From contig OZ245366.1 in assembly GCA_965226585.1 (NCBI GenBank), forward strand, positions 640,001-704,000: 64,000 bases of DNA, written 5' to 3'. The translations under genes and the position numbers were made by a program. Origin of the DNA: Thermodesulfobacteriota bacterium. GTDB taxonomy: Bacteria > Desulfobacterota_D > UBA1144 > Nemesobacterales > Mycalebacteriaceae. Numbering within the stretch: position 1 is the stretch's first letter; every line of letters starts with the position of its first letter. The notes below the pieces were generated by a model. The model was not told where the DNA came from, did not search any database, and was given only the letters and a program-made list of their open reading frames with translations. Below, piece by piece: positions 40,127 to 50,598 of the stretch.

Positions 40127-40356
40127 TTCCGTGCCTGTCTCCTTTCCGTCATTCCGTGCCTGACACGGAAACCAGTATTCAACCGGTTAAACAATACTGG
40201 ATTCCTGCTTCCGCAGGAATGACGAAGGGGAGTGTCATTCCGTGCTTGACACGGAAACCAGTATTCAACTGGTTAACCAATACTGGATTCCTGCTTCCGC
40301 AGGAATGACGAAGGGGGGCAGGAATGACGGGGAGGGGCGGGAGTGACGGGGAGGGG
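40127..40356. repeat. Palindromic repeat cluster B (units 40148-40223 and 40234-40309, plus GGARTGAC half-sites)
   Basis: Same 76-bp unit in the same orientation. Confidence 0.97.
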
Positions 40357-40926
40357 CTAAGCCGCGACTCGCTTTGCTTCTTGAAAAGCAATCGGGTCGA
40401 GAGTATGCTCCGCACCGGTTGTCCATTTCTCAACGGATTCTGATATTAAGGCAACCGCCAAAATAACAGGCACAAAGGGAGCAAGAAGTATCAGCAACAA
40501 CGGAGAAGTTCTGAGAATATGCTTTCCGACCTCTGTTGACATGCGTTCAAAGTACTTCAATATTACTTTCTGAACTTCAGGGCTCAACAAATCAATTTCG
40601 CCATTTAACCTGTCCGTAAACGCCCGCCCCTCGCGCTCAACACGTTTTCTCTCAAACAGAAAGGTTAAGAGAAGACCAAGCAACGTTATCTTGCCCGCAA
40701 AACGTATGTAGCCGTTCATCAGCGTTCTGAGAGTTCCGTATGCGGGGTGGTTGAAGTCAATGTTGCCATCTGCGGCGTAGTCAAACATCTCATCCCTGAT
40801 TTCAAAAATTCTCTGTTTGAAGCCGTCAACAAGGGCGCGTTTGAGACCGAAAGACCAGACAGCCCAGGTGATTAAAAGAATTAAAAACGAAAACATTACA
40901 TTTGCTTTTTCAGCAGTAAATTCCAT
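40357..40926 (-). CDS. Uncharacterised membrane protein (3 hydrophobic segments)
   Basis: 189-aa ORF; D.FKQRIF.IRDEMFDYAA.G...F.HPAY..LR..MNG.IRF block; its stop codon abuts cluster B. Confidence 0.75.
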   Translation of the reverse strand: MEFTAEKANVMFSFLILLITWAVWSFGLKRALVDGFKQRIFEIRDEMFDYAADGNIDFNHPAYGTLRTLMNGYIRFAGKITLLGLLLTFLFERKRVEREGRAFTDRLNGEIDLLSPEVQKVILKYFERMSTEVGKHILRTSPLLLILLAPFVPVILAVALISESVEKWTTGAEHTLDPIAFQEAKRVAA

Positions 40927-40927
40927 A

Positions 40928-41260
40928 TTAAACCCCTTTGGTAGCGGCTCCGTCCGCCGCCCCTATGCTACCGGAACTTCTGGAATCGTCAAACTTTTTC
41001 TCCAGCTCACGTATCCTGTCTTCAAGGTATTTTGTTTTCCACATTCTTATAGACCTTTCGTAGATTGCCCAAGAGAAGAATGCGACACACATGAGTAAAA
41101 GCGAAACCTTTACGCCATCTTTGCTTCCCAATGTTGAGAGGACAACATCAACGACAATACTTGTGTCAGTTCCTTTGATGTCTTTCAGGGTCAGATACGC
41201 AATGTAGAACATGGCAACTCTGCCCGCCTGAACAAGAAATGTTTCAATAGTTTTTCCCAT
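40928..41260 (-). CDS. Uncharacterised 2-TM protein with a coiled-coil tail
   Basis: 110-aa ORF with a 1-nt gap to the downstream gene; upstream promoter. Confidence 0.7.
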   Translation of the reverse strand: MGKTIETFLVQAGRVAMFYIAYLTLKDIKGTDTSIVVDVVLSTLGSKDGVKVSLLLMCVAFFSWAIYERSIRMWKTKYLEDRIRELEKKFDDSRSSGSIGAADGAATKGV

Positions 41261-41294
41261 GCCGATTTACGACCGGAGCAACTGCTCGGGGGCA

Positions 41295-41323
41295 ATTTTA
41301 ACCCGACAAACTCCCATTTTCAA
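41295..41323 (-). promoter_or_regulatory. sigma70 promoter for the 41260-40357 cassette
   Basis: TTGAAA-N17-TAAAAT on the minus strand. Confidence 0.6.
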
Positions 41324-41332
41324 TTCTCAAGC

Positions 41333-41552
41333 CTCTCCTTCCGTCATTCCGTGCTTGACACGGAAACCAGTATTCAACCGGTTAATTAATACTGGATTCC
41401 TGCTTCCGCAGGAATGACGGAGGAGTGTGTCATTCCGTGCTTGACACGGAAACCAGTATTCAACTGGTTAATTAATACTGGATTCCTGCTTCCGCAGGAA
41501 TGACGGAGGGGAGGGGGTGGAATGACGGAGGGGCGGGAGTGACGGGAAGGGG
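41333..41552. repeat. Palindromic repeat cluster C (units 41343-41418 and 41429-41504, plus half-sites)
   Basis: Same 76-bp unit in the same orientation. Confidence 0.97.
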
Positions 41553-41561
41553 TTAATAGCC

Positions 41562-41590
41562 TTGACTATGGTTTTCTGCTGGATTAACAT
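41562..41590 (+). promoter_or_regulatory. sigma70 promoter for the 41600-42100 cassette (near-leaderless)
   Basis: TTGACT-N17-TAACAT, 9 nt before the ATG at 41600. Confidence 0.6.
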
Positions 41591-41599
41591 TTTCCTGCT

Positions 41600-41806
41600 A
41601 TGAACAGGAATGTTCCACGGAATCAGGAAGAAACTACAAGGACTCTTGCCGCAGTTATTGGCGGCGCGTTGCTTGGGGTTGCGGTTGGCGGTCCCGTTGG
41701 CGCGGTTGTCGGCGGAGCTGTGGGTCTGATTGCGGGGCAGAAAACGAACAATTCATTAAGAAAGAAGAATGGTCACGACCGACCATCAGAAAAAACCAAG
41801 TTTTAG
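41600..41806 (+). CDS. Small glycine-zipper protein
   Basis: 68 aa; GGALLGVAVGGPVGAVVGGAVG (repeated GxxxG) followed by a basic tail. Confidence 0.7.
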   Translation: MNRNVPRNQEETTRTLAAVIGGALLGVAVGGPVGAVVGGAVGLIAGQKTNNSLRKKNGHDRPSEKTKF

Positions 41807-41809
41807 AAT

Positions 41810-42100
41810 ATGAGCGGGATGTACATTCTTTATATTGCCACGGCAGTGTTGGGGCTTGTTCTTACAGGCTTTTACTTGTTACGTTGTCGCAAGTATAGCG
41901 TGAGTGTGAACGGTTCCGTGATTATCACTCTCTTCTTGCTTGCCGGTGGTTTACTGGGCGGTTTTGCTCTTATGGTAAGCCTCTTTCTCCCGGAAGTGCG
42001 GGACATTCCCAAGTTTGATGAATATGTCTTCATTGGCGGAATTTCTATGACAGTATATGTATCCAGCAAGATATACGGCATCCTCAAGTTTCTTCAGTAA
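41810..42100 (+). CDS. Small 3-TM membrane protein
   Basis: 96 aa with three hydrophobic segments, starting 3 nt after the glycine-zipper gene. Confidence 0.7.
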   Translation: MSGMYILYIATAVLGLVLTGFYLLRCRKYSVSVNGSVIITLFLLAGGLLGGFALMVSLFLPEVRDIPKFDEYVFIGGISMTVYVSSKIYGILKFLQ

Positions 42101-42111
42101 TCCTCTCTTTT

Positions 42112-42457
42112 TCCGTCATTCCGTGCCTGACACGGAAACCAGTATTCAACTGGTTAATCAATACTGGATTCCTGCTTCCGCAGGAATGACGGGGGAGTGT
42201 GTCATTCCGTGCCTGACACGGAAACCAGTATTCAACTGGTTAACCAATACTGGATTCCTGCTTCCGCAGGAATGACGGAGGAGTGTGTCATTCCGTGCCT
42301 GACACGGAATCCAGTATTCAACCGGTTAATTAATACTGGATTCCTGCTTCCGCAGGAATGACGGAGGAGTGTGTCATTCCGTGCCTGACACGGAAACCAG
42401 TATTCAACTGGTTAACCAATACTGGATTCCTGCTTCCGCAGGAATGACGGGAAGGGT
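42112..42457. repeat. Palindromic repeat cluster D (4 tandem units: 42115-42190, 42201-42276, 42287-42362, 42373-42448; 86-bp period)
   Basis: 76-bp units separated by a near-constant 10-bp GGRGGAGTGT linker. Confidence 0.97.
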
Positions 42458-46544: not shown

Positions 46545-46811
46545 ATGCTCAATGAGACAATAAATATGTGGATAAGAACAGGGGCGGATATACAGGTGCT
46601 TAACCCAGAGGCGGAGATTGAAGGAAGGCTTGAGAGGGATAATGTTCCCGTTGACGGCACAATGGACAGGGTGATGTTCACCTACGGCGCGGGTTTTGAA
46701 TACAGCCCTTACGAGAAGTTTAATGTGAGTTTTGAATATGGCGGCGGGGTGAGTTCTTCGGTTGATACTTTTGTTCAGCAGTTTAGAGGCGGAGTTAATT
46801 ACAGGTTTTAA
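46545..46811 (+). pseudogene. Orphan C-terminal fragment of an autotransporter beta-barrel
   Basis: Aligns by eye with the last ~85 aa of 46839-50234 (INMWIRTGAD/VNMWMTAGAD; YGAG/YSAG; YGGGVSSSVDTFVQQF/YSGGVSTTFDTLTQTF). Ends in YRF, has no signal peptide, and has an in-frame TAG at 46518. Confidence 0.75.
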
Positions 46812-46838: not shown

Positions 46839-49800
46839 GTGTCTAAAAACTTAGCCTTACTCACCCTGCTTTCTTTCTTATTCACATTTTCCGCGCCGCC
46901 CTCTTATGCGCAGGAACCAGGAGTCTGCTACTACCACATCATCAACCCCTACTCAACATCCCTCCCCAGCACCATAGAACCCATAATGTCGGCCGATTGC
47001 CCCAGAGCGGACGGAAACGCATACCTCACCATTTTTTCAATCGCCCCTAATGATCATTACATAAATTCAACTAATGCCGCTATTTCGTACTACCCCACCC
47101 AAGCGGGCGCAAATACAATCATTTACGTTGGAGGTTTCAATATCACAACGGTACAACCAGACGGAGAATCTATATTTATCAATACCCCGGGGAACGGCCT
47201 TTTAGATATCGCTGACAGCGTGTTTATCACCAAACGCGGAACCGGCGGAAATGTTGTTACCATCACAGCCGGAACGGGTGATGTGGATATAGACATTTAC
47301 AATCAATCAAAAGTTCAAATTGAATCAACCGGCGGCGGGAACGGAATTGTCGCGTCAAGCGAAAGCGGAAGAGTGCTTGCGGACTTCTCCAATCAGGGAA
47401 GAATCTATTCAGTCCAAGATGACGCGACCGGGTTTATCGCAACAACCAACGGCGGTGAAATCAGCGCGAATTTTGACGGTTTGTATTCAAGAATACTTAT
47501 GTACCCTGTAGGCAATCACGCGGGCTCATCAGACTCCAAAGGCGCGACATTCACAAGCACAAGCGGCGATATAAGTGTTTCGCTGACAAACTCCTCGGCA
47601 ATCCTAGCCCCGTCTCTGGGAGATTCCCACGGCTTGGAGGCGGTAACGGGAGGGGACGGCGACATAAACATACATTTGCAAAATGGAAACGCCTGCATAG
47701 TCGGCAGAGACGGGGTTAAAGCCACCACTGTTGACGGCGACATAAACATATATCTGTCAGACGCGCTTATTCGCGGCAGGGGCAGAACGGGTTTGTCTGC
47801 AACATCTACAAACGGAGATATTACAATCACGGGAGATGGCACGGGCAATATTGCCTCTGTTGCTGGTAACGGCGTTTATCTTGACACCGGCGGTGAGGCA
47901 AGCATCAGCAATATTGATATATGGACGCAAGGAGATGGCGGCACAACAATAGAATCGGCAAGCGGCTTGCATGTAGTATCGGGAAATATCTGGGCTAACG
48001 GTTCGGGCGGCAATACGGTGGAAGCGGGAACTGTGAATGTGTCGGGCGGAGATATTTTTACGACAGTCCATAACAGCAATGCGGTGGTTGCGCAGGCGGT
48101 GAATATATCGGGCGGAGGGATTTGGATGCTCAGAGGCGGTTCATCAGAGAGCATTTTCAGTACCGCTGTGCTTCTCAGAAACGAAGACGGGCAAGCGGAA
48201 TTGACGGTTGGAGGAAGCGCGATTGTGTGCGGCGGTGCGCTTTCGGGCATAATCTGCACGGCAAGCGACTATGGCTATGCCGTGCGTGTTGAGACCCCGG
48301 CGGCGACCTATGGCACAACGATAACAACCGAACCCACCGGCAATATAACGGGCAGAATTGGGCTTTCTAACAACAACGATGTTTTCTACAACAATGGCTC
48401 TTTCACCGGACACGGAAACACCAGAGGCGGTGATGACATGGTTGAAAACAAGGGAACTTTCACCCTCACCGGAGATTTTGAAATGGGTGAAGGCGATGAC
48501 ACTTTTGAAAACAAAGACAGCGGAATGGTAGTTTATGGCAACCACTCAATAATCGCAGAAACCAAGCCTGATCCACCCTCCACGCAACAATCCTCTCCTT
48601 CCCGTCATTCCGCATCTTCACCATCCCGTCATTCCGTGCTTGACACGGAATCCAGTATTCAACTGGGTTACCCAATACTGGATTCCTGCTTTCGCAGGAA
48701 TGACGGAGAGGGCAGGAATGGCGAGAGTGGGGAATGTCATTCCGTGCTTGACACGGAATCCAGTATTCAACTGGCTAATCAATACTGGATTCCTGCTTCC
48801 GCAGGAATGACGGAGAGGGCAGAAATGACGGAAGGGGCGGGAATGACGGAGGGGGCAGCAAGCGGCGACAGCCGTTTCCGCCTTTCCGCATCAGACCCCG
48901 CCCCTGACGACACAACCGCAACCATTAACTTCGGCGATGGCGATGACCATTTCATAAACAACGGCACAATCGTAATTCAAGATACAGGCGGATTTAACGG
49001 CTTGGAGAAAATAACCTTCGGCGAAAACTCAACCGTTATGGTTACCGCAGACTCTGCCAAAATGACGACAGACAAACCCCTCATAGAACTTGAAGGCGAG
49101 ATAACTGCGGAAGATGTTAAAGACCTAAACATAAAATTAGCCAACCCTGAAAGACATTCAGACGAATTTTCTTTATTCAGCGAAAACTCTTTGCCTGACG
49201 GTGAAGCCGAAAGACAGGCGGTATTGAGCATGATAAGCGGCGGTCTTGGTGAAGGCAGTAGCGCGGGAGTGGATTCAAACGGCAATATATTTGTTGTGCT
49301 TGCCAATTCCGTTCACTTTAACTACCTGAGAAATTATGACGCAATGATCCAATCCGCTTACCACTCAGACACAAGTTTCTCAGAAAAACTGCGCGGCAGT
49401 TGTTACGGCGGGGAAGCGGAGACACAACATTTAAGCGGCGGCTGTCTCTGGGCAGATGCGGGAAGCCGTCACACGAGACACGACACAAAGGTTAAATACG
49501 GAGAAGACGCCTATGTATTTGCCGGAGGTTTTTCCATCCCCGCAGGGCAGTCCGCCGTGTCAATCGGAGCGGGTTATGAAACATCAGACTTTAATGCCGG
49601 AACTGATACAAACGCGGCGGGTGAGCGTTTTATGGCAGGGTTATCAGTAGCAGGTGAGATTTGGAAAAGAATTATCGCAGACGCAAGAACACAATTTGCA
49701 AAAGCGGCATGGGAATCAACATCCGCAAGGGGAGAAGACACTTATTCCGCAAAGACGGATATAACAACATGGTCTGCCGCAATAGGGGCAGAGATGCCGT

Positions 49801-50234
49801 TTTTCCCCGGTGGTGTATTTATGGTGGTTCCGCGTCTTGAAGCGGGAGTAGCCCGTGTATCTGCGGACAGTTTCACCGAAACCGGCGGCGGAGATATGCC
49901 TCTTTCTGTTGAAGGATTATCACAAACATATTTGCGTGTAACTCCATCGGTAACTGCTTATGCTCCCGCAGGGGAAAGTGTGAATATGTGGATGACCGCC
50001 GGAGCGGATGCTCATTTAACAGACCCCAAGACAGACTTAAAAGCTACCTTTTCTCCTGATGACCCTGTAAATACAAAAGGCGGACTTGAACGCATAAACA
50101 TAAGATACAGCGCGGGGGCTGAGGTAAATCCGGTAAAAGGTGTAAGTGTGCGGGTGGCGTATAGCGGCGGGGTTTCCACTACCTTTGATACGCTTACGCA
50201 GACATTTACGGCAAGGTTCGGAGTGGCGTTTTAA
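46839..50234 (+). CDS. Autotransporter (type Va) adhesin-like outer-membrane protein carrying an in-frame repeat insertion
   Basis: Signal peptide (PSYA/Q), Gly/Thr/Asn-rich beta-helix-like passenger, GDD-x-F-x-N-x-G repeats and a C-terminal amphipathic barrel ending in Phe. Confidence 0.88.
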   Translation: MSKNLALLTLLSFLFTFSAPPSYAQEPGVCYYHIINPYSTSLPSTIEPIMSADCPRADGNAYLTIFSIAPNDHYINSTNAAISYYPTQAGANTIIYVGGFNITTVQPDGESIFINTPGNGLLDIADSVFITKRGTGGNVVTITAGTGDVDIDIYNQSKVQIESTGGGNGIVASSESGRVLADFSNQGRIYSVQDDATGFIATTNGGEISANFDGLYSRILMYPVGNHAGSSDSKGATFTSTSGDISVSLTNSSAILAPSLGDSHGLEAVTGGDGDINIHLQNGNACIVGRDGVKATTVDGDINIYLSDALIRGRGRTGLSATSTNGDITITGDGTGNIASVAGNGVYLDTGGEASISNIDIWTQGDGGTTIESASGLHVVSGNIWANGSGGNTVEAGTVNVSGGDIFTTVHNSNAVVAQAVNISGGGIWMLRGGSSESIFSTAVLLRNEDGQAELTVGGSAIVCGGALSGIICTASDYGYAVRVETPAATYGTTITTEPTGNITGRIGLSNNNDVFYNNGSFTGHGNTRGGDDMVENKGTFTLTGDFEMGEGDDTFENKDSGMVVYGNHSIIAETKPDPPSTQQSSPSRHSASSPSRHSVLDTESSIQLGYPILDSCFRRNDGEGRNGESGECHSVLDTESSIQLANQYWIPASAGMTERAEMTEGAGMTEGAASGDSRFRLSASDPAPDDTTATINFGDGDDHFINNGTIVIQDTGGFNGLEKITFGENSTVMVTADSAKMTTDKPLIELEGEITAEDVKDLNIKLANPERHSDEFSLFSENSLPDGEAERQAVLSMISGGLGEGSSAGVDSNGNIFVVLANSVHFNYLRNYDAMIQSAYHSDTSFSEKLRGSCYGGEAETQHLSGGCLWADAGSRHTRHDTKVKYGEDAYVFAGGFSIPAGQSAVSIGAGYETSDFNAGTDTNAAGERFMAGLSVAGEIWKRIIADARTQFAKAAWESTSARGEDTYSAKTDITTWSAAIGAEMPFFPGGVFMVVPRLEAGVARVSADSFTETGGGDMPLSVEGLSQTYLRVTPSVTAYAPAGESVNMWMTAGADAHLTDPKTDLKATFSPDDPVNTKGGLERINIRYSAGAEVNPVKGVSVRVAYSGGVSTTFDTLTQTFTARFGVAF
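48593..48856. repeat. Palindromic repeat cluster E, intragenic (units 48628-48704 [77 bp] and 48736-48811, plus half-sites)
   Basis: Same unit, translated as HSVLDTESSIQL twice within the autotransporter ORF. Confidence 0.97.
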
Positions 50235-50598
50235 TACTGGATTCCTGCTTTCGCAGGAATGACGGGGAAGGGCAAGGAATGACGCTTCTCACCACTCCGT
50301 CATTCCGTGTTTGTCTCCTTCCCGTCATTCCGTGCTTGACACGGAATCCAGTATTCAACTGGTTAGTTAATACTGGATTCCTGCTTCCGCAGGAATGACA
50401 CTCCCCACTTCCGTCATTCCGTGCTTGACACGGAATCCAGTATTCAACTGGTTAATTAATACTGGATTCCTGCTTCCGCAGGAATGACACTCCCCACTTC
50501 CGTCATTCCGTGCCTGACACGGAATCCAGTATTCAACTGGTTAACCAATACTGGATTCCTGCTTTCGCAGGAATGACGGGGGGGGGGGCAGGAATGAC
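50231..50598. repeat. Palindromic repeat cluster F (right half-unit 50231-50263; full units 50324-50399, 50413-50488, 50502-50577)
   Basis: Same unit with an 89-bp period; begins at the autotransporter stop codon. Confidence 0.97.

Follow-up and report, generated by a model that had tools for sequence, protein, structure and literature searches.

The window, by which we mean the whole 64,000-nucleotide stretch of DNA that was analysed, contains a type Va autotransporter gene in which hairpin repeats are read in frame through a linker ahead of the barrel. The gene's family of 29 paralogs accounts for 10% of the 1.48-Mb genome. The features of the locus are listed below in window coordinates.

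46548..46808, + strand: orphan barrel end, the last 87 codons of another paralog, 99% identical to G000:C1:1012476-1018421
46839..50234, + strand: gene for a type Va autotransporter of 1131 aa (29 paralogs in the genome, this one included)
46839..46910, + strand: aa 1-24, a probable signal peptide as judged by eye, with a similar pattern in paralogs
48540..48914, + strand: predicted disordered linker, aa 568-692, pLDDT below 50 (model residues 190-314)
48601..48627, + strand: head half-site, read as PSRHSASSPS, with GTCATTC at 48604, 24 nt 5' of unit 1
48628..48704, + strand: unit 1, a hairpin heterodimer of 77 bp; the same sequence occurs at G000:C1:39651 (intergenic) and G000:C1:1259678 (paralog)
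48705..48735, + strand: 31-nt spacer, found elsewhere only in paralog G000:C1:1258078-1261194
48736..48811, + strand: unit 2, a dimer of 76 bp and of the type common inside the genes; G000:C1:443276 has the same sequence
48812..48856, + strand: tail half-sites, two of them of 18 nt, with an 18-nt period (ERAEMT, EGAGMT, EGA)
48873..48887, + strand: RFRLS motif, also in repeat-free paralogs, with synonymous variation
49308..50228, + strand: region under purifying selection, with the linker helix at 49308-49397 and the 12-stranded barrel at 49443-50228
50232..50577, + strand: downstream intergenic array, a right arm overlapping the stop codon, then full units at 50324, 50413 and 50502

The autotransporter C-terminus was identified by profile search (PF03797 at aa 871-1109), and the passenger had no Pfam match. 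A structure model of aa 379-1131, built with 21 paralog sequences as input, contains rungs of a beta-helix, a linker helix and a barrel of 12 strands, the last resembling EstA (3kvn, E 1.7e-16), NalP (1uyn, TM 0.85 over target) and EspP. The beta-helical passenger, linker helix, 12-stranded barrel and terminal Phe are shared with classical type Va autotransporters (EstA, NalP, EspP and AIDA-I translocators). Unlike these, the window gene belongs to a 29-member mosaic family and has a 125-aa disordered linker with repeat-derived sequence. The entire insert lies within this linker, between beta-helix rungs of the model. A first-pass annotation of the window had proposed structure prediction as a check on whether the repeat-derived loop is exposed, and the modelled insert loop is predicted to be disordered, with pLDDT below 50. 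Directly upstream of the gene, the orphan fragment is the only barrel fragment outside the 29 genes. Silent barrel cassettes were considered and rejected on that count, and the fragment suggests that the window locus was copied from a tandem array. Two barrel-only paralogs of ~370 codons each, with signal-like N-termini and without a passenger, were also observed (G000:C1:1230245-1231363 and 1231275-1232387, - strand).

Folding gives each repeat unit two hairpins with a paired middle, at a z of about -7 against 200 shuffles; the left arm has an 8-bp stem and a 5-nt loop, and the right arm an 8-bp stem and a 4-nt loop. Both arms of unit 1 carry the tag CGTC and the left arm of unit 2 carries TGTC, with arm ends reading GGAATCCA. 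Unit 1 and the 31-nt spacer together form a 108-nt block. Compared with an empty allele that has identical anchors, the net insert is 85 codons (129 aa here vs 44 aa). The first-pass annotation had read 48593-48856 as translated, and we recovered the 1131-codon ORF, with the peptides it quoted lying between GDDTFEN and GDDHFIN. Its frame arithmetic for the loop of unit 1 was likewise reproduced: with one G removed the frame ends at codon 657 (GAA-TGA in unit 2), and with the G kept beside the consensus A it ends at codon 611 (GGT-TAA). Past the insert, 458 in-frame codons including the barrel were counted, in agreement with its figure of ~460. Barrel dN/dS between the window gene and its 7 closest paralogs is 0.04-0.10, and the 12 codons private to the window gene 3' of the insert comprise 8 synonymous and 4 non-synonymous ones, so the downstream frame behaves as coding.

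Across the genome, we found 137 full repeat units in 69 clusters, of which 120 are 76 bp and 8 are 77 bp long. The statement that unit 1 is the only 77-bp copy holds within the window (1 of 15 units) and fails for the genome (8 of 137), where its exact sequence is present in 3 of the 137 units. The 5 remaining 77-bp units have other loops; all are stop-bearing in the insert's frame and all lie outside genes. Most dimers (123/137) are outside autotransporter genes, and 43 of the 69 clusters are in or at most 500 bp from a family gene, vs 10.8% of random positions. An Rfam search returned no meaningful match, and related loci in genome and metagenome contig collections were not confirmed. Congeners, in which repeat and barrel positions were compared by eye, contain 0-31 exact matches to the repeat pattern per genome; with so few matches in the congeners, this lineage is the only one searched that shows the expansion. 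A RAYT was rejected as mobiliser, the lone RAYT-like gene (G000:C1:1393395) being ~22 kb from the nearest cluster and not repeat-flanked.

Within the family, a full unit is present at the homologous site and in the same orientation in 13 paralogs, giving 14 units with the window's two. Among the other paralogs, one allele has a left arm only and one has an inverted arm. The first-pass annotation had proposed a scan of all coding sequences for further in-frame copies, and none turned up elsewhere: all 14 in-gene full units are at this one site in this one family. Outside the family, 7 stop-to-stop frames of at least 200 codons touch the repeat, all of them shadow frames or gene-end overlaps on inspection, and no other real gene with an internal full unit was found in the genome. 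The alignment it had suggested with homologs lacking the insert was achieved with three proteins from other assemblies, all labelled Thermodesulfobacteriota. In P0006, with 94% identity across the matched portion, the linker is empty and 44 aa long; in P0007 and P0010 the insert site is occupied by a single arm. The gene body had no match in 20 relatives, in which three weak hits all fell on the repeat-derived segment, so insert-lacking orthologs come only from these three proteins; shorter homologs of aa 500-760 were not found among 1645 candidates.

A barrel tree was built from 19 of the 29 paralogs, with 10 left out. Carriers fall in four clades, three of which have an empty sister and one a half-allele sister, and the 13 carriers among the 19 rows require 6 changes, no better than shuffled labels. 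Paralogs whose barrels are 49% identical share tracts of 92-96% identity that run from the left edge of the repeat to about 48995-49033, extending about 130-170 nt beyond the repeat. The repeat has apparently spread among the paralogs by gene conversion. The linker with its RFRL motif is also present in repeat-free paralogs and is evidently older than the repeat. An RFRL-like motif occurs in 24/29 paralogs and varies synonymously despite the disordered linker; it may be a cleavage or binding site.

The first-pass annotation had described the changes in the loop of unit 1 as frame-rescuing mutations. In that account, two new mutations rescued the frame on site, and the peptide persisted as a surface loop with a function, on an adhesin that could be switched off. 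Read-through of this allele does need both changes, the loop is exposed in the structure model and the insert is common in the family, but we regard this account as very unlikely. The third copy of the 77-bp unit, identical to unit 1 with 0 edits, is in an intergenic array next to a 76-bp unit that is one edit away, between genes that we take to be purC-like and epimerase-like. Loops with an extra base recur in non-coding copies, and the whole 108-nt block is found in another paralog. Between unit 1 and the 12 in-gene 76-bp units, the distance is 4-6 edits in every case. Given the identical intergenic copy and its one-edit neighbour, the 77-bp variant was most likely picked from standing variation and not made in place, and the simplest reading of its being the sole stop-free 77-bp variant admitted to genes is a filter on that variation. 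The transfer itself may have run from array to gene or from gene to array.

In paralog G000:C1:1258078, the identical 77-bp unit is followed by the 31-nt spacer, with one base different, and then by empty-allele-like sequence (ASSTPSASGDSRFRL); this junction is also present in contigs of runs X1 and X4. In the window allele, the 108-nt block precedes a common 76-bp unit, and TGTCATTCCG is shared at the seam. Two paralog alleles appear to have recombined to give the window allele. An artefactual version of the same join, in which the assembly joined two paralogs wrongly at the repeat to create the two-unit allele, would leave the family-wide single-unit insert real. The family is repeat-rich and highly mosaic, the genome was assembled from a community, and the tandem junction from spacer to unit 2 (48735/48736) occurs once in the assembly. 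Among the contig pieces listed (assembled contigs of 4 runs, 2078 more pieces being unlisted), none bridges this junction or 48660-48675, where the first-pass annotation had called for verification against reads. Against a mis-join, the 1.48-Mb assembly consists of a single contig, the spacer is one base different from that of the other paralog, and the window gene has its 12 private downstream codons, mostly synonymous. The extra G is also present in three places with identical linked changes, and three identical copies argue against a base-calling error, though they leave some room for a mis-join. We consider the artefact improbable.

Selection on the reading frame, as the first-pass annotation had supposed, is borne out by the comparison of in-gene with outside copies. 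Read in the gene's frame, all 14 in-gene units are free of stops, vs 53 of the 123 others, and half-site periods are multiples of three in 31/31 in-gene cases vs 48/144 outside; the in-gene copies share ancestry, so the 14/14 and 31/31 are not independent events and their independence is overstated. These biases clearly point to selection for the reading frame in the gene copies. The description of the peptide as domesticated did not hold up. One peptide position is Pro in 8/12 copies and Leu in 4/12, the right arm is read in two different frames among alleles, the number of tails and with it the length varies, and in sister paralogs and another assembly the site holds half a repeat or none at all. 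This variation among alleles also speaks against in-place rescue of a functional loop, and we infer that the encoded peptide is close to neutral. As for switching the putative adhesin off, recombination between units 1 and 2 removes 108 nt and keeps the frame, so looping out one unit cannot do so, and 0/13 carriers are broken at the repeat site. A stop-bearing loop imported from an intergenic copy could inactivate the gene, and no example of this was seen among the 13 carriers. An insert that is domesticated, rescued in place or a switch is not supported.

We favour, with a probability of roughly 0.7, a reading in which the repeat is tolerated and filtered for frame, encodes a near-neutral peptide and has spread by conversion through a permissive linker, with the window allele a recombinant. 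Elsewhere, an NTS-like hairpin pair flanks a putative ssnA-like nuclease gene; the repeat would be the short version of this pair without a coding sequence, and it would have expanded in this lineage around the 29-gene autotransporter family. The entry point of one or a few copies would have been a disordered linker close to the passenger/translocator junction, already present and variable, after which gene conversion would have moved the repeat with about 130-170 nt of flank into 13 genes in four barrel clades. Under the proposed filter, which presumes that the genes are expressed, the survivors would be stop-free variants and length changes in multiples of three. The window allele would have arisen when a ready-made 108-nt block, as in G000:C1:1258078, was joined before a 76-bp unit through a crossover at TGTCATTCCG. 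For drift alone, a spread to 13 genes within a single lineage is a lot, and it could reflect a beneficial insert or a bias in conversion. On this reading, the paralogs and homologs provide a natural allele series (empty, one arm, full dimer, two reading frames, tandem) that would show a repeat colonising a gene family via one permissive linker and frame selection filtering standing repeat variants. The linker would also mark a site in an autotransporter passenger that tolerates 85 extra residues.

Comparable inserts are known from Rickettsia. Rickettsia RPE-1 is palindromic DNA that is read in frame as a new exposed peptide, and the insert described here is alike in being palindromic DNA translated in frame into an exposed peptide. 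The two elements are unrelated, and RPE-1 is the longer one, with independent insertions in many genes. In a search with RPE/WPE peptide models, there was no RPE-1 match, and the only hit was to TIGR02697 (WPE), at 16.9 bits vs a cut-off of 27.55. In the portions of the literature used here, RPE-1 is given an origin separate from RPE-4/6/7 (PMC3767692), and the CGTC-tagged REPs include Rickettsia RPE-4/RPE-6 and Neisseria dRS3 (Di Nocera et al. 2013, PMC3733652). The same portions describe CGTC-tagged REPs in frame within genes, with dimers encoding 20-30 aa and clusters 43-82 aa (PMC3733652). R. japonica inserts are described at solvent-exposed sites with ATGAC-rich extended flanks (PMC3767692), and Rickettsia orthologs can swap repeat type at one site (PMC3733652, PMC3767692).

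The repeat in the window resembles these REPs, as far as described there, in its CGTC/TGTC tag, 8-9-bp stems, 4-5-nt loops and CCA tail, and in forming inverted heterodimers that are mostly intergenic; no repeat-flanked tyrosine transposase gene is present. By its sequence it fits the CGTC-tagged REP heterodimer as described in those sections. The likeness that the first-pass annotation drew to Rickettsia palindromic elements extends to RPE-4/RPE-6 inserts, with a repeat-derived segment in frame in a loop predicted to be exposed: a pre-existing gene, represented by the empty P0006, received an in-frame insert at a site with pLDDT below 50. It does not extend to inserts in many unrelated genes. 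The Rickettsia inserts, as described in the same sections, are spread over unrelated housekeeping genes, whereas here 14/14 full intragenic units are in one family at one site. The word 'autotransporter' is absent from 4 supplementary files of PMC3733652 and from the main text of PMC3767692, and we found no literature on repeat inserts in an autotransporter family, in a search whose coverage mostly excluded subscription journals. Judged against these parts of the record, in-frame repeats of the CGTC class are already known from Rickettsia, and what is new is the family-wide spread at one site.

The repeat also resembles the NTS/SRM-Ssn system. Two putative ssnA-like GIY-YIG genes (PF01541) are present in the loops of repeat units, in arrays between autotransporter genes.

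G000:C1:1209374-1209661: putative ssnA-like gene in a unit loop
G000:C1:1333306-1333593: putative ssnA-like gene in a unit loop

The two copies encode identical 96-aa proteins and have arms on both sides. Congener G001 has a 68%-identical putative nuclease gene between canonical NTS copies, and its NTS repeats are almost only at the ssnA locus. Against the NTS consensus, the right arms here have 2 and 3 mismatches of 28, two being a compensatory pair, and the left arm is one base longer in a comparison made without gap alignment. The degenerate SRM search string, as coded here, matched 0/137 units in either arm, with 7 matches in the genome vs 9-11 in shuffles. The sections consulted of Chenal et al. 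2025 (PMC11893778) describe two shared properties, a single-domain GIY-YIG gene bracketed by inverted arms and repeats that cluster around surface-protein genes. They also give one difference: NTS are rarely intragenic in N. meningitidis (2%, PMC11893778), and here ~10% of full units (14/137) are intragenic, in one family.

These genes raise a function at the DNA level, in which the in-gene hairpin pair is the target of an Ssn-like nuclease that steers passenger/barrel shuffling at the junction, by starting or limiting recombination with paralogs or with incoming DNA. Neisseria SsnA cuts ssDNA beside NTS and modulates transformation, as reported in the sections consulted (PMC11893778). The two 96-aa genes in the loop of a repeat unit, the concentration of clusters in and near family genes (43/69 vs 10.8% at random) and several conversion tracts that start at the left edge of the repeat all fit such a role. 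Families of comEC and dprA are present in the genome, but they are also in 10-11 of 14 control genomes and so are no proof of competence. A four-gamete test on 8 close paralogs (182 informative sites) gave incompatibility of 0.62-0.75 across the repeat, about equal to the 0.54-0.80 elsewhere, and in these paralogs the signals of recombination cover the whole gene. Swap junctions are distributed over about 48300-49170 and are also found in repeat-free paralogs, and another assembly has empty or half sites. We consider a DNA-level function unlikely on this balance. Its stronger form, in which an Ssn-like enzyme cuts junction ssDNA in 13 autotransporters and drives or gates passenger swapping, the peptide being incidental to the DNA signal, strikes us as just as doubtful. 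On present evidence, the swap zone appears to be the linker zone and not the repeat. A preference of recombination between close paralogs for the repeat was not supported either, the signal being saturated at a minimum of 76 intervals, perhaps inflated by recurrent change. The nuclease link, if true, would offer a direct test of NTS/dRS3-type repeats shaping surface-gene variation, and a shuffling cassette, if true, would be a dedicated surface-variation system in a probable sponge symbiont. The autotransporter family is present in one sponge metagenome run, and the host bacterium is probably such a symbiont, of a Dadabacteria-like kind.

Several further observations were made on the repeats and the family. 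The stop TAA is the first 3 bases of a repeat right arm in 4/29 paralogs (window 50232-50263; G000:C1:780653, 832943 and 1189475), so the repeat supplies or overlaps the gene end in these. At window 40148-42448, two glycosyltransferase genes enclose short genes of apparently foreign origin, which are flanked by repeat arrays with a left-arm A variant. In congener G001, autotransporter frames of up to 12,381 codons are found at G001:C1:487558-585217. Finally, the repeat supplies both the last codons (SSVIPAEAGIQY) and the stop of a 955-codon frame at G000:C1:833076-835940 (- strand), presumably an isoleucyl-tRNA synthetase by its motif.
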